Notes under the pieces: generated by a model | Databases searched by the model: none | The model's input: only the letters and a program-made list of their open reading frames with translations | Told to the model about the DNA's origin: nothing | Assembly (NCBI GenBank): GCA_021813265.1 | Contig: JAKALF010000001.1 | Span: forward strand, 2,548 to 66,547 | DNA: 64,000 bases | Direction of reading: 5' to 3' | Source of the DNA: a bacterium | GTDB lineage: Bacteria > Patescibacteriota > Minisyncoccia > UBA6257 > GWB1-50-10 | Shown: positions 3,014 to 20,723 of the stretch, piece after piece | Layout: each line of letters opens with the position of its first letter | Position numbering within the stretch: position 1 is the stretch's first letter | Made by a program: the position numbers and the translations under genes

Positions 3014-3350
3014 ATTGCACCGTTAAAAGCTGTTCTTTCTGCCTTTTTTGAGCTAAAACTATATCTTTAAGCATATTATTTTACTTTCATTGGACAGGAT
3101 ATTTTTATTTTGTCCAATACATATAGTATAATGGACAAAAGAAGGAAATACAAGAGATAAGGTTTAAACCAAAAATTAGTGAATTAGAGAACCAAAAATC
3201 ATAATCGACATGACGGTCGAATTTACGCCCGTCGTAACCGACAAATCAAAACCCAAGATGATTGACCTTAAAACGCGAAAATCCCGACAGATTGGCGAGA
3301 TTCTCGAGATGGCGTCCAATCAACCGGACTTGGTTATATCAAATACCGTC

Positions 3351-3427
3351 TGGGGTGCCTGATGGGAATCGAACCCACGACGACTTGCTCCACAGGCAAG
3401 CGCTCTACCAACTGAGCTACAGGCACC
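3351..3427 (-). tRNA. tRNA-His (GTG) with G-1 and encoded CCA
   Basis: Cloverleaf folded by eye: 8-bp acceptor including G-1:C73, anticodon loop CTGTGGA, T-loop TTCGATT. Confidence 0.85.
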
Positions 3428-3447
3428 ATACAAGAAAAAGAATACTA

Positions 3448-3882
3448 TTATTCGTTTAGGTCTTCAAGATAAGGACGTTTGCTCTGATATCGATGTTTTT
3501 TCTTTAAACTATGCGTGTTTCTCTCTTCCCTAAATTTTTCTTCAATTCCTAAAGGAGGTTCCGTGGGAATACGGACTTTGGGAATTTCCAAGGCTTTTTC
3601 AATAAGAATATTCATGATTTCGAGAGCTCGATCGTGGTTTTGCTCCTGGGAACGTTCTTCTTCGCATGAAACTTCAAGTTCGTCATTTTTAGTAATATGA
3701 GAGGTAAGCTTTTCTCGCAAGAGACTCCGTTCTTCATCTCTTAGGGGAAGGTCAAAAATCTTCGCCCAAATTTGAACTTTCGTTGAGCGTTTGTTCACGT
3801 TCTGCCCTCCCGGACCTCTTGAACGGGCCGCCTTAAAACGCGTGTTTTCTTTGGTAACATAAACCATGATTGTCTTTTGCAA
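3448..3882 (-). CDS. arfB: peptidyl-tRNA hydrolase ArfB-like (RF-1 GGQ domain protein)
   Basis: GPGGQNVNK motif and a basic C-terminal tail, 144 aa. Confidence 0.6.
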   Translation of the reverse strand: MQKTIMVYVTKENTRFKAARSRGPGGQNVNKRSTKVQIWAKIFDLPLRDEERSLLREKLTSHITKNDELEVSCEEERSQEQNHDRALEIMNILIEKALEIPKVRIPTEPPLGIEEKFREERNTHSLKKKHRYQSKRPYLEDLNE

Positions 3883-3906: not shown

Positions 3907-4560
3907 ATGAGCAATTTAGTTGATATTTTCACAGGATTGGTTGCTCAATATCCTTCCTGGACGTATACCATATTGGGAATCGGCACGCTTCTTCAAGGTG
4001 AAGCGGCTATTTTATTCGCGACCTATCTTCTTATTAATAAGGTTATAACCTGGCCTGGATTTTTAGGATCAACGCTTTCCGGTCTTATTATCGGCGAAAC
4101 CTTCGTATATCTTTTCGGAAGAATCATGCGGAATACCCGCTTCGGATGGAAACTATACTACAAAAAGAAAGCGAGTAGAAAGCTTCAGTTGTATACCTAC
4201 TATCTGAAAAAGAACATGATCAAGCTTTTTGTTGTCGCGAAGTTCATTCCCGGAACCAATCTTGCTATCTTTGTTTTAAGCGGCTGGTCAAAAATACCCT
4301 TCAAGAAATTTATGAAAGCCTACCTCGCAAGCGTTATCGTGTGGTTTTCAGCCATGACCGCTATCGCCTATTCGGCCATGAGCGGTATCACCTACCTTAG
4401 AACGACGAAAATATTCAAACAAGCGGAAATAGGAATCGTGATACTCATTATCGTTATCATCATCGTTGAACGATTCTTGAGAAAATATTTCAACAAACAA
4501 ACCTTCGGTTTTGAAGCTAAGGAAGACAATGAATTGGAAGAAAAAGAAAATCCCATGTAA
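3907..4560 (+). CDS. DedA/VTT family membrane protein
   Basis: KFIPGTNLAIFVLSG...PFKKF motif, multi-TM. Confidence 0.5.
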   Translation: MSNLVDIFTGLVAQYPSWTYTILGIGTLLQGEAAILFATYLLINKVITWPGFLGSTLSGLIIGETFVYLFGRIMRNTRFGWKLYYKKKASRKLQLYTYYLKKNMIKLFVVAKFIPGTNLAIFVLSGWSKIPFKKFMKAYLASVIVWFSAMTAIAYSAMSGITYLRTTKIFKQAEIGIVILIIVIIIVERFLRKYFNKQTFGFEAKEDNELEEKENPM

Positions 4561-4562
4561 CG

Positions 4563-5441
4563 TTAAAATACATGGGATTTATTATTACCTGAAATCATGA
4601 GGGCGTATTGATACACCGCTCTCACGTACGCCCTGGAATTGTTATATCTCCAAAGCGCTTTATCTTGCTTTGATCTATTTTTACCCTTCCACCCGTTTTG
4701 GAAGAGATAATTTCCGACGCTTGCCATCGCGTCGTCTTTCTCGAAAAGATCCGCCCTGTGATCTCCATCCCAATCAACGGCATAGTGTTGATATGAGTAC
4801 GGCATGAACTGAGGCAGGCCAAACGCTCCCGCCCACGATCCCCGAATTTGAAGCGGATCCCATTTCATCTCTCTTGAAACTTCAAGAAACGACCTGAACT
4901 GTTTAAGAAGATGAGAAACGGGTCTCCCTCGTTTTCTATTTATATAATATCTGGTATAGAAAACGTTGGGAACGTAATATCTTCCGAGAAGTCTCCCGAG
5001 GTCAGTTTCAACTTTTAATATGGAAACGATAACGGGGGGCGGAACGGAAAAAACTGAACTAATCTTTTTGAGTTCCGCGAGGTTTTTATTCAAAAACCCC
5101 CTTCCTCTCTTAATGGATTGATCCGTAAAGAGAAAAGAATATCCTTTCCATTTTGGAATGACTTTTGGAGGAAAAAGGATAAGCGAATCGATTCCGAATC
5201 TCGGATCGTTAAACAGGGAATCGATAAGGGCGGGATCGTCAAACCCTCTTTCAAGGGTTATTTTGAGCTCGTTATGAAACCCGTGTCTCCCTCTAGGTTC
5301 GGGAGGATGGATATATGGAACGGGAACAGCTCTTTTTATCTCTGTCTTCCCCATCTTAAGAATATCTCCCCCTATGGTAACCGGAAGAATGAAAAAAAGA
5401 AGGAGAAAGAAAAGAAAAAACGAAATGTTTAGCAAGCGCAT
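4563..5441 (-). CDS. mltB: lytic murein transglycosylase (MltB-like)
   Basis: GAFGLPQFMPYSY...DWDGD...ASVGNYL block typical of the MltB/SLT-2 family, with an N-terminal signal/TM segment. Confidence 0.6.
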   Translation of the reverse strand: MRLLNISFFLFFLLLFFILPVTIGGDILKMGKTEIKRAVPVPYIHPPEPRGRHGFHNELKITLERGFDDPALIDSLFNDPRFGIDSLILFPPKVIPKWKGYSFLFTDQSIKRGRGFLNKNLAELKKISSVFSVPPPVIVSILKVETDLGRLLGRYYVPNVFYTRYYINRKRGRPVSHLLKQFRSFLEVSREMKWDPLQIRGSWAGAFGLPQFMPYSYQHYAVDWDGDHRADLFEKDDAMASVGNYLFQNGWKGKNRSKQDKALWRYNNSRAYVRAVYQYALMISGNNKSHVF

Positions 5442-14992: not shown

Positions 14993-15904
14993 ATGCCTAA
15001 TGAAAGAAAAACAAGGGTTCTGCTTGTGATTTTAGACGGTTGGGGAATAGGAAACGATGATGAGAGCAATCCCATCCATTTCGCGAATCCTCAAACCCTT
15101 GGGTATATACAAAAAACCTTTCCCTCGGGAATGCTCCAAGCCTCGGGAGTCGCGATCGGTCTTTCATGGGAAGAATCGAGTTCAAGCGAGTTGGGCCATC
15201 TTGTGATGGGATCGGGACGCGCCCTCCACGCGTACGCGAAAGAAATTTTCTCAAAAACTTCTCCTATCTCAGAAACCCTTGGGGAGATTCTTTCTCAACA
15301 TAACAAAGTTCAAATGCGTATAGCGGAAGAAGCGAGGTATGAACATATTACGTACTTCTTTAATGGATTAAGAAACGATCCCTTTCCTAATGAGTATCGG
15401 GTACGGATCCCGTCGGAAAAAACCCTTCACCCCGAAACGCATCCCGAAATGATGGCCTCTGCCGTAACGGATCGGGTTATAATAAGTCTCAAGGAAAAGG
15501 CGTTTGATTTTATCGCCATAACCTACGCGAATCCCGATGTTATCGCCTTTACGGGAAACTATGAGGCGACCATAAAGACGGTTCAAACGATTGACGGAGA
15601 GTTAAAAAGACTAATGGATACCGTCTTAGAAGAAAGCATCCTTATGATTATAACCTCAAGCCATGGAAACGCCGAGGCGGTTTTAAATCTCAAAACGGGA
15701 GAGACGGAAAAGACTAACGATCCCAATCCCGTTCCCCTCTATCTTGTGGGAAATGAATATATCCTAAAAAACCCCCACCCCGACATCTATCACCTTCCTC
15801 CGCTCGGAATCATATCCGACATAGCTCCGACTATTTTAGATCTCATGGGAATCAAAAAACCCAAAAGCATGACGGGAGAGAGTTTGTTATCTCAGTTGAA
15901 ATAG
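14993..15904 (+). CDS. iPGM-like alkaline-phosphatase-superfamily protein lacking the central phosphotransferase domain
   Basis: N-terminus VLLVILDGWGIG...SELGHLVMGSGR and C-terminus ITSSHGNAE...DIAPTILDLMG match the two halves of the GpmI phosphatase domain. The intervening ~230 aa are absent. Confidence 0.55.
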   Translation: MPNERKTRVLLVILDGWGIGNDDESNPIHFANPQTLGYIQKTFPSGMLQASGVAIGLSWEESSSSELGHLVMGSGRALHAYAKEIFSKTSPISETLGEILSQHNKVQMRIAEEARYEHITYFFNGLRNDPFPNEYRVRIPSEKTLHPETHPEMMASAVTDRVIISLKEKAFDFIAITYANPDVIAFTGNYEATIKTVQTIDGELKRLMDTVLEESILMIITSSHGNAEAVLNLKTGETEKTNDPNPVPLYLVGNEYILKNPHPDIYHLPPLGIISDIAPTILDLMGIKKPKSMTGESLLSQLK

Positions 15905-16846
15905 CTTGTCTTCCAATTTTCTTGTGTTTCCGTGACACAAAAGGCCTCTGTATGAATTGAGTGTTTCTTGCGTCGCGCGGGTTTTAACACGATTGAACAT
16001 TCTCCGCTTTGTCGCGGTTCGCAGTACCCGATGATCGGGGAAATGGACCCAACCCAGGAAATCAACGCCGGAGCCGAGGGGTTTTACAAAAACCTTATGG
16101 CTGTGTAGATGAAGATTGAGACTTTCTTTTAAGAATAAATCTATTTGGGGAATACGTGACCACGCGCGTTTTTTGTCTCCAGAAAAAATCACGAAATCAT
16201 CCGCGTAACAGATATAGTACGGTTCTCTCAATGCGTGTTTTATAAACCTATCAAATCTATCCATATACACATTCGCGAAAAGCTGGCTCGTGAGATTTCC
16301 AAGCGGCAACCCCTTCCCCGGAGTTGCGTGAAAACTCTCAATAATGCTTCTGCAAAGCCAAAGCGTTTTTGTATCAACTCGCTTTTCTAATATTGAAAGA
16401 AGGATTTCGTGATCAATGCTCGCGAAGAACTTTTATATGTCGCATTTTAGTATCCAACACTGTTTTGTGTTGTTTTTGCTTACTCTGTACGCGAAGGCGC
16501 GGAAACGATCTAACGCCTTACGCATCCCCTTGTTGTTTCTGCACGAAAATGAATCGGAAATGAATTTCTTGTCGAAACAAGGATAAAGCACGCGATACAT
16601 TGCGTGATGCAGGAGACGGTCTCGAACGCGCGCTTTATGAATGTTTCTCGGTTTCGGATCGGAAATATTAAAAGCAACATAACCTCCGTGGCGGTAGGCG
16701 CGGTTTACAAGCTCGCGGTGGAGTGAGAAAACATGATCCATAAGGTGAAGCGAAAATTCCCGCACGTCCGGTTTGCCCCTCTTACCGTTCAGAAACTCCC
16801 GCCACGCTTCAAGTAGATTTTCAACGGAAATAATTTGTTCAAACAT
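15887..16846 (-). CDS. DGR-type reverse transcriptase interrupted by one in-frame TAA (16433-16435); possible pseudogene
   Basis: N-terminal part: RNIHKARVRDRLLHHA and ...KCDI*KFFASIDHEILL. C-terminal part: GNLTSQLFANVYMDRFD and YADDFVIF. The two ORFs are in the same frame, separated only by TAA at the motif-2 Arg/Lys position. Confidence 0.8.
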
Positions 16847-17260
16847 ACGTTATGGAATCAAATAAAACCTTTAACCCCCCCCCGACGGAATGACCTGCCG
16901 GTAATTCGGAAATTGATTGACGTTTACAAACTCTGGCATGAATTCGTACCGCACATTCCGAAGACCTCGCGATATACGTTGGGAGGGAAGATTGACTCAT
17001 TATTTTTGGACGTGATTGAATTGATATTTGCCGCGTCCTACGACACAATGTCCGAAAAAATCGCAAGACTAACTAACGCGAACGCAAAACTCGGAACACT
17101 CAAATTTTTTCTCCAGATCGGCTGGGAAATAAAGATGATGGATACGAAAAGATACATCGTTCTATCAGAAAAACTTGATGAAATTGGACGAATATTGGGA
17201 GGATGGAAACGCGGTATAGAAACAAAACTCCCCGCAGGAAAGCAAGGAGAACGGGGGTAA
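16835..17260 (+). CDS. avd: Avd-like four-helix-bundle protein (DGR accessory variability determinant)
   Basis: YKLWHEFVPHIPKTSRYTLGGK ... LDEIGRILGGWKR matches the Avd / 23S-IVS four-helix-bundle family. The start is uncertain (TTG at 16835) and overlaps the RT start on the opposite strand. Confidence 0.6.
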   Translation: MFKHTLWNQIKPLTPPRRNDLPVIRKLIDVYKLWHEFVPHIPKTSRYTLGGKIDSLFLDVIELIFAASYDTMSEKIARLTNANAKLGTLKFFLQIGWEIKMMDTKRYIVLSEKLDEIGRILGGWKRGIETKLPAGKQGERG

Positions 17261-17371
17261 GCTGCGAGAAAAAACGCGGCCGCCTTCGTTCCAGAAGACG
17301 TCACGAAGACCATACGCACCCAAGTACCACCCGCGATCGTCACCATCCCAGTACGCGTGCACGGCCACCAC
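17258..17371 (-). repeat. DGR variable-repeat-like copy B (orphan, abutting avd stop)
   Basis: 114-bp copy of 17710-17823. It differs at 22 positions, all in codon positions 1-2 of 13 codons. Confidence 0.7.
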
Positions 17372-17612
17372 GCTCAATATATGCGCGACGCGCCATCTAA
17401 ACCACCGCGTCTTGAACATTCTCGACGCTGTATCGTATGCCGAGGATAAAACCTCGAGAGCGCGTTGCACCAGCTGACCTTTTGTTTTTTAAGCGTTTTC
17501 TCGCGCTCCTCCGTAAAACATATCCGACGGAGTTCCCGCTTGAAAACCGCTTGAAACTTTCCCGCCGAAACCATAGCCGCGGCGAAAACGAAAATTTCAA
17601 AGTTTAGTATAC

Positions 17613-17659
17613 AAAAAAATCCCTCTTTCTCAAAGGATAAACATAAAAGAGAAAGAGGG
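17613..17659 (-). terminator. hairpin (11-bp stem ccctctttctc/gagaaagaggg) + T-run downstream of the DGR target gene
   Basis: Perfect inverted repeat with a T7 run on the minus strand, about 50 nt past the target stop. Confidence 0.5.
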
Positions 17660-17709
17660 AGAATGAAAAGGAAGAAGAGGGAAAAAGAAGAAAGGAAAAA
17701 AGGGGAAGG

Positions 17710-18414
17710 TCAGCTGCGAGAGAAAACGCGGTAGCCTTCGCGCCAGAAGGCACCATCAAGAACATACGCATCCAAGATCCACGCGCGATCGTCATCACCC
17801 CAGCGCGCGTCCACGGCCACCACGCGTCCATCTTCCAATTCAACATAGAAGATGGTGGCGTAGCCATTGACGAGTAGCTTGCCTTCCTCTCCTTCTGGTT
17901 GCTTCATGAGCAGATAGGAAAGGATTGAGGAGAATTCTAGGAGGGAGAAAGGCTTGGGATGTCCGAGTTCCTCGAGGATCTCGGAATCACGCATGTCCTT
18001 TGAAAGCTGAGTCGATTGGAGATTCCCTTGAAAGGCGGGGACAAGATTGGGGATTGCTTTTAGGATCCGATCCCTGAAACTATCCCAAATATATAACTTC
18101 ACGGGACCATTCTTGAAGAATGAGTCCCTTTGAAAGGGCTGGATGCTTATGGGGATCTGGTCCGTGATTAATTGTAGATGTTTCAGCGCGAACTTGGACG
18201 CACCAACGATAAGATCCGCTATTTTTTCGGCCATCTGCGGAATCAGATCTTTTTTATCCTTTAATGCGTCAAAAATCTGATCTTCAGAAACGTTCCTTTT
18301 CTTCAATTCTTTAAGTAATGAAGAAAAGAAATCGACTATAAACATTAAAGCGGCGAAGATTGATGATTTTTTCTGTGTCATTTGACACCTCCATATGTTG
18401 TGATGTTCCATCAT
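17710..18414 (-). CDS. DGR target protein with a C-terminal variable region
   Basis: 234 aa. The last ~37 codons (17713-17823) are one copy of the diversified repeat. Confidence 0.65.
   Translation of the reverse strand: MMEHHNIWRCQMTQKKSSIFAALMFIVDFFSSLLKELKKRNVSEDQIFDALKDKKDLIPQMAEKIADLIVGASKFALKHLQLITDQIPISIQPFQRDSFFKNGPVKLYIWDSFRDRILKAIPNLVPAFQGNLQSTQLSKDMRDSEILEELGHPKPFSLLEFSSILSYLLMKQPEGEEGKLLVNGYATIFYVELEDGRVVAVDARWGDDDRAWILDAYVLDGAFWREGYRVFSRS
17713..17823 (-). repeat. DGR variable repeat (VR) at the 3' end of the target gene
   Basis: See repeat B. It is followed by a roughly 70-nt homopurine(+)/CT-rich(-) tract. Confidence 0.7.
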
Positions 18415-19121: not shown

Positions 19122-20723
19122 ATGTCTATCGCCTCGCTTTTGAAAAACGCTATGTCGTCTAAAGAACGCGTAGCTTTTGGAATCGCCTCTACCGCCCTTA
19201 TCGTCTCGGCTATCGCGACGGGAGTATTTTCCGTAAAAGAAAACAGCTCCTATGTCCCCGTTCGGGGAGGATCCTTCAGTGAAGGGATAATAGGACAGCC
19301 TGTTATGGTAAACCCCATACTTTCCAAGAATCAGGCTGATAGGGATATCAGTTCGCTTGTGTATAGCCCTCTTTCAAAACTCGTCTCAAGCTCCGAGACG
19401 GATCCCGATCAAAGGGTATATACTGTAAAGCTCAAAGAAGGACTCCTTTGGGATGACGGAAAGCCCCTCACGAGCGACGATGTTATCTTTACCATAAAAA
19501 CGATTCAAAATCCCGACGCGCGTTCTCCCTTTGAAAAAAACTGGAGAGGGATATCGGTTGAACGATCCAGCGAACTCCAAGTGGTCTTCACTCTTCCGGT
19601 TCCCTATTCTTTTTTCTCCGAGATTCTTTATAAAACTCCCATTATTCCAAGGCATATCTTCTCGGCTATTCCCGTGGAAAACTACAGACTCTCTTTGTAC
19701 AGCTTGAAACCCGTGGGAAGCGGACCGTATAAGGTAAAGAAAATTGATCAGCGAAGAGATGGATTCATAACCGAATATCAGTTGGTTCCCAATCCAAACT
19801 ACGCGGGAGATCCTCCCTTTATCACCAATTTCTATTTCAAATTCTATGAAACGGAAAACGATCTTTTCAAAGACTTAAGACTCCGAGAAATAAACGGATT
19901 CGGAAGTCTCTCTCCTTTGGATAAGCGTTTTGAAAACGTCGGGAACGTCAAACTTGAGAAAATCCCCATGTCTCGATACTACGCGATATTCTTTAATCCC
20001 ATAAACAACCCTTCTCTCAAGAACAAAAGCGTGCGGAAGGCGCTTGATCTCGCGATTGATAAAAACGAGTTGGTAAAAATCCTGGGAGATGGAAACGCGT
20101 TTCCCATAAACAGTCCGCTTGTTCCTCTCTTAAAAGAAAAAAACACCTTTGAAAACAAATACAACCAAGAAACGGCGAGAAACCTTCTTGAAAAGGCTAA
20201 AGTGACAAACCTTTCCATCAATCTCATTGTTCCCAACACGGATACGTTCAAAGCGATAGGAGAATTCATTAAAAACGCGTGGACGGGAATCGGAATAACG
20301 GGTGTGACTATAACCCCCGTTGACCCCGACGCCATCTTTGATAACGCGATCAAAACAAGAACCTATGAAGCGATTCTTTTTGGAAACGCGCTTGAAAATC
20401 CCCTTGATTTCTTCCCCTTCTGGCATTCATCTCAGCGGCTTTCTCCCGGACTCAACCTCTCCTTCTATCAAAACATTGATGTTGATAAGCTCATAGAAAA
20501 AATACAGGAGACACGGGATGAAACGGAACGCGAAAATCTCGCAAACCAAGCCGCTTCTCTCATTGAAAACGACGTTCCCGCCGTATTCCTTTACACTGAA
20601 CCCTATTTCTACCTGCGCTCGGAAAAACTTCAAGGAATGAACACGAACTTGATTACCGCCCCAAGCGACAGATTTTTGAACGTTCAGAATTGGAGCGTCA
20701 TCATGGCGAGGGTTTTGAAATAA
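19122..20723 (+). CDS. ABC transporter substrate-binding protein, family 5 (peptide/nickel type), orphan
   Basis: 533 aa with an N-terminal anchor and SBP_bac_5-like architecture. No permease or ATPase genes are adjacent. Confidence 0.55.
   Translation: MSIASLLKNAMSSKERVAFGIASTALIVSAIATGVFSVKENSSYVPVRGGSFSEGIIGQPVMVNPILSKNQADRDISSLVYSPLSKLVSSSETDPDQRVYTVKLKEGLLWDDGKPLTSDDVIFTIKTIQNPDARSPFEKNWRGISVERSSELQVVFTLPVPYSFFSEILYKTPIIPRHIFSAIPVENYRLSLYSLKPVGSGPYKVKKIDQRRDGFITEYQLVPNPNYAGDPPFITNFYFKFYETENDLFKDLRLREINGFGSLSPLDKRFENVGNVKLEKIPMSRYYAIFFNPINNPSLKNKSVRKALDLAIDKNELVKILGDGNAFPINSPLVPLLKEKNTFENKYNQETARNLLEKAKVTNLSINLIVPNTDTFKAIGEFIKNAWTGIGITGVTITPVDPDAIFDNAIKTRTYEAILFGNALENPLDFFPFWHSSQRLSPGLNLSFYQNIDVDKLIEKIQETRDETERENLANQAASLIENDVPAVFLYTEPYFYLRSEKLQGMNTNLITAPSDRFLNVQNWSVIMARVLK

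Follow-up and report, generated by a model that had tools for sequence, protein, structure and literature searches.

The biology of diversity-generating retroelements (DGRs) assumes a protected template repeat (TR), from which the target gene can be rewritten indefinitely. The locus described here raises the question of what has become of its template. The earlier note on this DNA had reported two near-identical repeat copies, both resembling products of adenine-directed mutagenesis, and had placed the true TR elsewhere in the genome. The locus was analysed within the window (the whole stretch of 64 kb) and compared with related loci, which are designated below by L numbers.

The repeat pair and its cassette

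The two copies are real and form a direct repeat of 118 nt on the minus strand, at 17256-17373 and 17708-17825, with 82.2% identity and an offset of 452. The limits first proposed needed a small correction, since the start of the second copy at 17713 lies 3-5 nt inside its true end. The 22 differences first counted become 21 over 118 nt and 20 within the narrower coordinates, while all 13 codon pairs that had been listed are exact on the minus strand. These 13 variable codons hold 19 of the 21 mismatches, including a single change at position 3 (GGT/GAC), as had been described; the two mismatches that had been missed lie beyond them, and are a third-position TTC/TTT and the TGA stop codon of the target gene facing a sense codon, TTA. 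The degenerate pattern of the fixed bases of the repeat matched only these two places in the 64-kb window, with none expected from shuffled sequences.

The mismatch pattern agrees with the origin by adenine mutagenesis that had been suggested for both copies, as 18 of the 21 differences affect position 1 or 2 of codons for which the TRs of relatives have AAY or xAy, and two are at position 3. The claim that neither copy is the template of the other also stands. Adenine occupies 6 of the 21 mismatches in the 17256-17373 copy and 5 in the 17708-17825 copy, and neither copy has it at 10. The cut-off for a DGR used by Roux et al. 2021 is at least 75% of mismatches at TR adenines, and in 62 related loci the copy in the template position has A at a median of 93% of mismatches, the VR having it at 0-2.

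The copy at 17708-17825 is the VR. It comprises the last 38 codons of the target gene (17710-18414, minus strand, an ORF of 234 aa), ending in TGA (17712-17710), and is found in a frozen state. The true start of the target may be the conserved Met12, and its protein matched no Pfam or NCBIfam family. A probable terminator of this gene, read from the sequence, lies at 17613-17660 (minus strand) as an inverted repeat (arms of 12 nt, 17660-17649 and 17631-17620) with a T-run behind it. The inverted repeat is conserved beside an orphan target in L008, and homology between L008 and the window stops at 17613.

The proposal that the locus is a DGR is borne out by the avd and reverse transcriptase (RT) genes beside the repeats. 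The avd accessory gene (16835-17260, plus strand) encodes 141 aa from a TTG start and is inverted relative to the TR, RT and target. It matches Pfam bAvd (PF22296) at 1.3e-17 and NCBIfam DivGenRetAVD at 8.7e-22, the latter with 77.4 bits, just below the cutoff of 80. Its start overlaps that of the RT gene divergently by 12 nt, as it does in L013, and the 142-aa avd of that locus can be aligned with it over the entire length. Inversion of an avd-TR segment was considered as the cause of the odd orientation of avd and was rejected, this orientation being the norm of the clade. A frameshift at the poly-C run of avd was likewise discarded, because the L013 avd can be aligned with the 141-aa frame across the run; L003 carries a 10-C variant of the run, and the frameshifted form would be that of L003.

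The RT gene (15887-16846, minus strand, 319 codons) is a pseudogene with one in-frame TAA at 16433-16435 (CDI*KFFASIDH), so that the product ends after 137 aa, directly past the first catalytic Asp and ahead of the LGNLTSQ and YADD motifs. Both motifs are present in the reading frame, the distal part of which matches RVT_1 at 3.7e-12. Identity to the intact 321-aa RT of L010 is 65% over 320 aa, with R at the position of the stop, and the RTs of relatives have Arg there. The TAA was found in all six assemblies covering the RT. More than 100 RTs of this DGR type are 57-72% identical to that of the window, and at over 60 loci RTs in this range stand next to canonical TR/VR pairs with A bias. In the search for closer relatives, the target protein gave two loci only in JGI metagenomes, both distant and short, and the RT gave none above 72% identity; since the closest are only 69-72% identical, there is no sister lineage with which to date the events at this locus.

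The template slot and its flanks

The order target-VR, 230-420 nt, TR, inverted avd and RT is shared by L009-L013 and about 60 Patescibacteria loci in GTDB. By order, orientation and orthologous flanks the window has CPR architecture B3, TR-(avd)-RT, which makes up 90% of the CPR set of Wu et al. 2018 (PMC5758913) and corresponds to DGR clade 2 of Roux et al. 2021 (PMC8144416); gene order and orientations, the avd family and the leader RNA are the same as in these DGRs. In more than 60 related Patescibacteria DGRs the TR slot is filled by a canonical TR rich in adenine. In the window this slot, between the leader RNA and the avd stop, is occupied by the copy at 17256-17373, while the VR stands at the 3' end of the 234-aa ORF.

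The TR-slot copy is non-coding and ends with SRS-Leu (TTA), and the TAA stop of avd (17258-17260) is the reverse complement of its final TTA codon. Contact with the avd stop and a 101-aa ORF had been assigned by the earlier note to the copy at 17713-17823; both belong to the 17256-17373 copy. The ORF (17165-17470, minus strand) was rightly described as unlike the target scaffold, being without homology to the target upstream of the repeat. It overlaps avd in antisense as well as the leader RNA, and is regarded as spurious.

The TR class of the window is shared with L010, L013, L014, L017 and L101, whose TRs follow the pattern VVAVNxNWN..W N L N A N..RWNxGN..SRSL. They carry Asn codons (AAC/AAT) at the variable codons of the window, and close with a Leu codon, which is TTA or, in L101, CTA, in place of the TGA of the VR. 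The TTT at codon 34 of the TR-slot copy is also present in the L101 TR. In composition the TR-slot copy is VR-like: it contains 11.9% A and one AAY codon, against 19.5-30.6% A and 5-13 AAY codons in the TRs of the 62 relatives, whose VRs contain 3.8-20.1% A and 0-5 AAY codons. When only the core is counted, the window has 9 non-A mismatches versus 0-3 in 57 of 60 other loci. A low A bias was also calculated for L017, L019, L030 and L041, where the alignments ran into the flanks, and for L089, where the core shows drift-like third-position transitions; the TR cores of all five are otherwise canonical.

The flanks of the slot are those of a TR. Directly 5' of it, at 17374-17600 (minus strand), lies a structured leader RNA with six helices, including a three-way junction that closes about 10 nt before the TR. 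RNAalifold applied to 63 loci predicted 38 pairs, with compensatory changes in 36. Paired cells amounted to 93.7%, compared with 38-48% when partners were slid, and covariation was 0.741 against 0.13-0.18. The leader is intact in the window, which keeps 37 of the 38 pairs. A leader of some 200 nt with such strong covariation 5' of the TR is an observation in its own right; a search of Rfam with the leader and all other parts matched no family. Upstream of the leader is a promoter-like site for a leader-TR transcript (17606-17633, minus strand; TTGAGA, 16 nt, TATACT), and a TTGATATAAT-like conserved block stands at an equal distance from the TR across the 63 loci. On the other side, 7 nt after the TR and within the antisense of the avd 3' end, a hairpin with a T-run (17218-17249, minus strand; stem 17249 to 17228) probably represents the 3' end or terminator of the TR RNA. 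RNAalifold gave no structure for the hairpin 3' of the TR, the variable loops having been misaligned by MAFFT, and it was scored instead by a per-sequence fold test, which in its strict form placed a hairpin and T-run at the same position in 51 of 63 loci.

Taken together, the promoter-like site, the covarying leader, the 3' hairpin, the inverted avd and the TTA codon indicate that the copy beside avd is, by position and flanks, the locus's own TR, now adenine-depleted. The statement that the true TR is not at this locus is accordingly not upheld, as the avd-side copy occupies the conserved TR slot with TR-type flanks and TTA instead of TGA. With its adenines depleted, this TR would no longer be able to diversify the target gene.

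Origin of the adenine-depleted template

A third state of the VR is provided by L008, which contains the VR-bearing 3' half of the target and its terminator at 89% identity, in a different genome context and without the cassette; the VR-bearing segment thus moves or recombines between lineages. Comparison with this VR defines 24-25 ancestral A sites, of which the TR-slot copy has kept A at 10 and the window VR at 9. Between 9 and 10 of these sites are mutated in both copies, with the same base at only 2-3, and both copies show the G-rich substitution spectrum of the clade. By this comparison the TR-slot copy and the VR are independent draws.

Both copies and the RT stop are identical in all six assemblies containing them, which differ elsewhere by 0-12 SNPs; the VR alone is present in a seventh, without VR differences, and the exact 234-aa target protein occurs on 11 public contigs. 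No differences in either copy were seen among the loci read, which are consensus assemblies. There is no sign of continuing homing, although "fixed" covers the recent past only, as all assemblies are about 99.9% identical and represent one clonal lineage. A blastn search (word size 7) with both copies and an all-A reconstruction gave no third copy in the 64-kb window. A pattern of 37 nt, in which the A sites were set to N, had 0 matches in GTDB representative genomes and 0 in JGI metagenomes, these scans being uninformative if the source genome lies outside those collections or is masked there. The earlier note had reasoned that a missing third copy together with fixed differences would mean an ancient duplication and not a DGR. 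Both were observed, but this conclusion does not follow, because the mismatch pattern and the orthology point to a DGR that died rather than to a mere ancient duplication.

The explanation that we consider probable is that of a dead chromosomal DGR, the TR of which was overwritten by adenine-mutagenised sequence, most simply by self-homing, and the RT of which then decayed; the route and the order of events are inferred. In the working form, as represented by the relatives, the promoter would give rise to a short non-coding RNA made up of the structured leader, the TR and the terminal hairpin. The RT with Avd would copy the TR into cDNA, misreading adenines, and this cDNA would be exchanged for the VR with which the target gene ends, 452 bp upstream. 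The lineage of the window would have departed from this when the TR-slot copy (17256-17373) was itself overwritten by such a mutagenised sequence, most simply by homing of a cDNA to the TR and not to the VR. The last 35 nt or so of the two copies are one base apart, the copies are co-oriented, and a hairpin follows each. The overwrite would have removed 12 of the 13 AAY-type codons and with them most of the mutagenic capacity. Since 15 of the VR differences lie at positions that have no A in the present TR, no later homing into the VR would have been fixed. The nonsense mutation in the RT would have been acquired after the overwrite. We know of no documented case of self-homing into a TR in nature.

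Gene conversion would leave an identical end state: a VR that was already diversified, belonging to a paralogous target or to the allele of another strain, could have recombined into the TR, or the local VR could have converted the TR before the VR-bearing 3' half of the target was replaced. The presence of that 3' half and its terminator at 89% identity in L008 shows that the segment moves or recombines between lineages. We nevertheless regard ectopic conversion as unlikely, since it requires two events or an unseen paralogue, and since the TR-slot copy retains the TR markers TTA and codon-34 TTT. Conversion by the local VR alone fails on the 15 positions just mentioned. Among the homologues of the target, no VR matched the TR-slot copy. 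The pair might alternatively belong to an active DGR with an RT that is not adenine-specific, or have drifted apart by ordinary mutation. A relaxed RT and extra mutations are the two options offered by Roux et al. 2021 for rare atypical DGRs, among them seven clusters that look like genuine DGRs but show an A bias below 75% and no bias of another kind (PMC8144416), and L089, with its drift-like third-position transitions, belongs to the present clade. This reading is disfavoured and appears highly improbable here: the differences are concentrated at positions 1-2 of AAY/xAy codons, with only two at position 3, all sampled RTs of the clade show a canonical A bias, and in the window the RT is truncated and the VR invariant.

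The interpretation given in the earlier note, in which both copies are VRs, the true TR is encoded at another place in the genome and the avd-side copy is an orphan VR still receiving homing, has in its favour that neither copy templates the other, that remote targets are known for some DGRs (Wu et al. 2018, PMC5758913) and that the search of the source for a third copy covered only the 64-kb window. It is very unlikely given that the copy is non-coding and sits in the orthologous TR slot, between flanks specific to a TR and with the TTA marker, given the in-frame stop that truncates the local RT, the invariance of both copies in six assemblies, and the lack of a third copy in the window or the two public collections. 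Least weight of all, next to none, is given to an assembly artefact in which population variants of the VR were mis-assembled into the TR position. The copies do share 118 nt, and the contig of L004 ends between them, at window position 17528; yet the sequence across the copies and their unique flanks is identical in six assemblies, which come from two or more submitters (ENA ERZ2723..., NCBI DAI..., JAKBYV...), and the variable core of about 80 nt is spanned by single short reads that include unique flanks.

Known DGRs and the meaning of a depleted template

The window differs from CPR B3 DGRs in general as follows: the TR has one AAY codon instead of 5-13, the mismatches are not A-biased (6/21), the RT has a premature stop and the VR shows no variation between assemblies. 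A parallel is L096 (GCA_027310365.1), which has the same architecture and one of the closest RTs (72%). Its TR carries the same kind of lesion, with six non-A sites in the core, all at codon positions 1-2, at which the VR has A (4) or another base (2). Unlike the window, L096 is hit at these six sites only and retains 17 canonical A-to-N sites; it has an intact RT of 325 aa and a different TR/VR class. L096 is possibly an intermediate stage.

The DGR of Bordetella phage BPP-1 shares with the working form the use of Avd and RT for mutagenic retrohoming, which is adenine-specific and leads from the TR to a VR at the target's 3' end. Doulatov et al. 2004 are reported to have found that a TR given an IMH becomes a recipient of mutagenesis itself. 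The BPP-1 derivative in which the IMH* of the TR is replaced by the IMH of the VR seems to be a laboratory analogue of the event proposed here, which would have been natural and terminal where the derivative was engineered. In BPP-1 the IMH at the 3' end of the VR sets the directionality of homing, deciding which repeat is the recipient (PMC3240598; PMC5703328). Integration of cDNA prefers exposed single-stranded targets and is helped by a downstream stem-loop (PMC12875486). These properties lend plausibility to the proposed route. The two systems differ in other respects. BPP-1 has the order avd-TR-brt, all on one strand, whereas avd is inverted in the window; its priming spacer is 3' of the TR, whereas the conserved RNA structure of the window is 5' of it; and the 3' ends of TR and VR, which differ at 5/21 in BPP-1, differ by a single base in the window. 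This one-base difference raises the question of what directs cDNA to one copy.

The window also resembles the seven "atypical mutation bias" clusters of Roux et al. 2021 (Supplementary Note 4), which have genuine DGR RTs, a plausible target and mismatches without any bias. Those clusters were left unexplained, while for the window the orthologous TRs allow an explanation, namely that the TR carries adenine-site substitutions. Overwriting of the TR by its own element would be a concrete explanation for some of the atypical-bias DGRs that have been set aside or left open in surveys. In annotation, where a DGR-clade RT stands next to TR/VR repeats that lack adenine bias, the locus may be a dead DGR and not a false positive.

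More tentatively, homing directionality in this Patescibacteria DGR clade could be intrinsically leaky, the element's own TR being an occasional recipient of the mutagenised cDNA, which would amount to built-in self-inactivation. Under this suggestion, for which the case is perhaps a little short of even, the window would represent complete erasure followed by RT decay, L096 a partial and still active stage, and some of the atypical-bias DGRs would be alike. The conserved RNA formed by leader, TR and hairpin may matter more, for the priming or templating of reverse transcription in the very abundant DGRs of CPR. The probable erasure of a TR in nature is a rare hint that DGRs can overwrite and disable their own template, and a natural TR bearing the mutational signature of its own element suggests that the protection of the template can fail, and that such a failure ends the element.

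The repeat pair and its cassette

The repeat search revealed one long direct repeat near the finding, with copies of 118 nt at 17256-17373 and 17708-17825 that are 82% identical and offset by 452 nt, in agreement with the two-copy repeat described in the earlier note. The informative strand is the minus strand, on which the 17708-17825 copy forms the final 38 codons of a 234-aa open reading frame (ORF; 17710-18414). Codon comparison on this strand reproduced exactly all 13 codon pairs listed in that note, and 21 differing positions were counted instead of the 22 given there. Of the 21 differences, 19 fall in these pairs, 18 of them at the first or second codon position and one at the third; the two missed earlier are TTC/TTT and the last codon, where the ORF copy has the stop TGA and the 17256-17373 copy has TTA. 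Adenine occupies 6 of the 21 mismatches in the 17256-17373 copy and 5 in the 17708-17825 copy; 10 mismatches have A in neither. When the fixed bases were searched as a degenerate pattern, the window matched at the two copies alone, and shuffles gave no match.

Read 5' to 3' on the minus strand, the cassette of this diversity-generating retroelement (DGR) begins with the target ORF (18414-17710; 234 aa), which ends in the variable repeat (VR). Direct reading of the sequence shows an inverted repeat with 12-bp arms and a T-run (17660-17613), followed by a predicted promoter-like site, TTGAGA-16-TATACT (17633-17606), about 230 nt before the second repeat copy (17373-17256), which occupies the slot of the template repeat (TR) behind a non-coding stretch of about 225 nt. 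A hairpin with a T-run (17249-17218) lies 7 nt past this copy, within the antisense of the avd 3' end. The avd gene (16835-17260) is on the opposite, plus strand and matches Pfam bAvd (1.3e-17) and, just below the cutoff, NCBIfam DivGenRetAVD (77.4 bits); its stop codon, TAA, is the TTA of the TR-slot copy read on the other strand. The 101-aa ORF spanning this copy runs antisense over avd and, as stated earlier, has nothing in common with the target upstream of the repeat. The reverse transcriptase (RT) gene (16846-15887, minus strand; RVT_1 match) contains one in-frame TAA at 16433-16435, directly past the first catalytic Asp (CDI*KFFASIDH).

The start codons of avd and RT overlap divergently by 12 nt, both in the window (16835-16846) and in L013, a related contig (5381-5392), so each gene's promoter must lie inside the 5' end of the other. 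The region encoding the N-terminus of Avd includes a run of 9 C (16875-16883, encoding TPP), which has 10 C in assembly L003; the longer run would frameshift avd and reflects either a homopolymer sequencing error or a genuine length polymorphism.

Identity and mutational state of the copy beside avd

Homologues of the target are few, and their variability falls exactly in the VR. Contigs L009-L013 have the layout of the window and an intact RT, to which the window RT is 65% identical, with Arg at the position of the window's stop. In two of them, L010 and L013, the repeat next to the stop codon of avd is a classic TR, with A at 17 of 18 and 16 of 19 mismatches, respectively; one non-A difference in each is TTA (TR) versus TGA (VR). 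An RT-alignment scan of GTDB representative genomes retrieved 80 Patescibacteria loci (57-68% identity), 62 of them with a detectable repeat pair; in these, A accounts for a median of 93% of mismatches in the RT-proximal copy, and the VR has A at 0-2 mismatches. The less biased-looking loci are mostly alignments extending into the flanks, with drift-like third-position differences contributing in L089; their cores are otherwise canonical. The layout corresponds to 'TR-(avd)-RT', architecture B3 in Wu et al. 2018, to which 90% of their Patescibacteria (CPR) set belonged (PMC5758913).

Two of the loci deserve mention in their own right. L014, the best GTDB match to the window RT (68%), has two separate A-biased repeat pairs in tandem (1398-1971 and 3119-3596) upstream of a single RT and is possibly a double TR/VR cassette. 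L089 (2985-3113 / 3452-3580) shows several third-position C/T differences in the core besides A-to-N sites, a pattern that resembles neutral drift between repeats, as in a DGR without homing for a long time.

The TRs of the window's class (those of L010, L013, L014, L017 and L101, the last with an RT among the closest, at 72% identity) read VVAVNxNWNxxDRxWNLNANxL...RWNxGNxVFSRSL. Their Asn codons coincide exactly with the codons that differ between the window copies, and they terminate in a Leu codon (TTA; CTA in L101) at the stop position of the VR. The sequence upstream of the TR-slot copy is also orthologous, comprising a conserved structured leader with 37 of 38 base pairs kept in the window. 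Judged by this sequence comparison (layout, Asn codons, Leu end and leader), the 17256-17373 copy is the cassette's own TR and not an orphan VR, as had been proposed.

The composition of this copy is VR-like: A makes up 11.9% of it and a single codon is AAY (AAC or AAT), versus 19.5-30.6% A and 5-13 such codons in relatives' TRs, and 3.8-20.1% A and 0-5 such codons in their VRs.

A related target gene, encoding P0002, is present in L008 (GCA_027423415.1, 3579-4493), with a third, independently diversified VR state and the same terminator. Homology of this contig to the window ends at 17613 and is followed by a Fic gene, without leader, TR, avd or RT; the gene is either an orphan DGR target or a target segment moved between genomes.

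Comparison of the three states (TR-slot copy, VR and L008) identified 24-25 sites of ancestral adenine, none of them at a third codon position; 10 are still A in the TR-slot copy, 9 in the VR and 2 in L008. Both window copies are mutated at 9-10 ancestral A sites, and they share the base at just 2-3, about the figure from independent draws; both have a G-rich substitution spectrum, as in the clade's VRs. Independent-draw sharing and this spectrum show that the TR-slot copy is an independent adenine-mutagenesis product of the ancestral TR, not copied from the present VR.

Inactivity of the element and a proposed route to its present state

Identical 234-aa target proteins are encoded on 11 public contigs. 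Seven loci were read from consensus assemblies, all of one clonal lineage, six spanning both copies and the RT stop and one (L004) the VR alone; they show zero differences in the repeat copies or the stop codon, and are 99.9% identical to the window with 0-12 SNPs elsewhere. Fifteen of the differences between VR and TR fall where the present TR lacks A, which means that homing from this TR into the VR has not been fixed. Searches of the window, GTDB representative genomes and JGI metagenomes found no third repeat copy. The element is inactive. In these consensus assemblies the locus departs from the functional definition of a DGR on three points: its mismatches are not adenine-biased, its RT is interrupted and its VR does not vary. 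Although a CPR B3 DGR by descent, it is therefore best classed as a DGR remnant.

Two features of these assemblies lie outside the repeats. L004 ends at window position 17528, between the copies, the type of assembly break that TR/VR pairs tend to cause. L001 and L005, otherwise almost identical to the window over 10-17 kb, differ from it by 7-10 SNPs clustered in about 170 bp of an SBP_bac_5 gene (20228-20396), probably a short recombination tract.

From the relatives and established DGR biology, the promoter of the working form would drive a leader-TR-hairpin RNA, RT and Avd would produce adenine-mutagenised cDNA, and this cDNA would replace the VR. The simplest account of the window lineage, requiring a single class of event, is that such cDNA took the place of the TR instead; with the TR erased, most mutagenic capacity would have been lost, selection on RT relaxed and the nonsense mutation followed. 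Since leader, hairpin and avd are still intact, the decay appears to be recent. The sequences themselves show the orthology of the slot, the VR-like TR, the independence of the two copies and the inactivity, whereas self-homing of cDNA into the TR and the order in which the changes came are inferred.

In BPP-1 the recipient is set by the IMH element at the VR 3' end (PMC3240598; PMC5703328). In the window's clade only the stop-codon base separates TR from VR over about 35 nt at their 3' ends; TR and VR are co-oriented, 452 bp apart, with an inverted repeat after each. Reportedly, Doulatov et al. 2004 placed the IMH on the TR, which then became variable. Integration of cDNA has been tied to exposed single-stranded target DNA and is helped by a downstream stem-loop (PMC12875486). 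Together these points make occasional mis-targeting of cDNA to the TR plausible.

Another relative, L096 (GCA_027310365.1; 4058-4179 / 4464-4585), has an intact RT that is among the closest to the window's (72%). Six positions in the core of its TR, each the first or second of a codon, are non-A; the VR has A at 4 of them and another base at 2. The pair also has 17 canonical A-to-N sites. It is possibly a partial stage of the same process, with the TR eroding in a still-intact DGR.

The same end state as by self-homing would result if another diversified VR had converted the TR, but this requires an unseen donor or two events and is rather unlikely. The model of the earlier note, a trans-acting TR elsewhere together with an orphan VR, is very improbable, since the slot is orthologous to that of relatives' TRs, the RT is truncated and the copies do not vary. 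Hardly credible is an RT of relaxed specificity or plain drift, given that the differences are confined to positions 1-2 of Asn codons and that the whole clade behaves canonically; drift has another look, with third-position transitions as in L089. Agreement of six assemblies leaves an artefact of assembly as the most remote explanation. To our knowledge, a natural TR bearing its own element's mutational signature, backed by orthologous TRs, is undescribed, and the literature searched yielded no description of a TR with such a signature. In Roux et al. 2021, genuine DGRs lacking adenine bias made up just 7 clusters (about 1%) and were left unexplained (PMC8144416), and the maximum of Wu et al. 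2018 was 11 non-A differences per target (PMC5758913).

The leader RNA

About 200 nt directly 5' of the TR (17374-17600, minus strand) form an RNA structure conserved in 63 Patescibacteria DGR loci, at the same position in L010 and L013-L092. It comprises six helices with 38 pairs, 36 of which show compensatory changes; 93.7% of cells are paired, versus 38-48% with slid partners, and the covariation score of 0.741 (0.13-0.18 in controls) was reached by none of 500 shuffles. Abundant G-U pairs assign the structure to the TR-sense strand. A search for an Rfam family gave no match. A conserved promoter-like block precedes the leader, and a hairpin with a U-run follows the TR in 51 of the 63 loci. 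The bracketing of leader and TR in the window by the promoter-like site (17606-17633) and the hairpin with its T-run (17218-17249) suggests that leader, TR and hairpin form a short transcript of their own, convergent with avd.

In BPP-1 the RNA element of known function is located 3' of the TR, whereas the structure in the window's clade is 5' of it, and it is likewise on the opposite side of the TR from the DGR RNA of Weinberg et al. The structure thus looks like a distinct DGR non-coding RNA with another layout, and it merits separate study.
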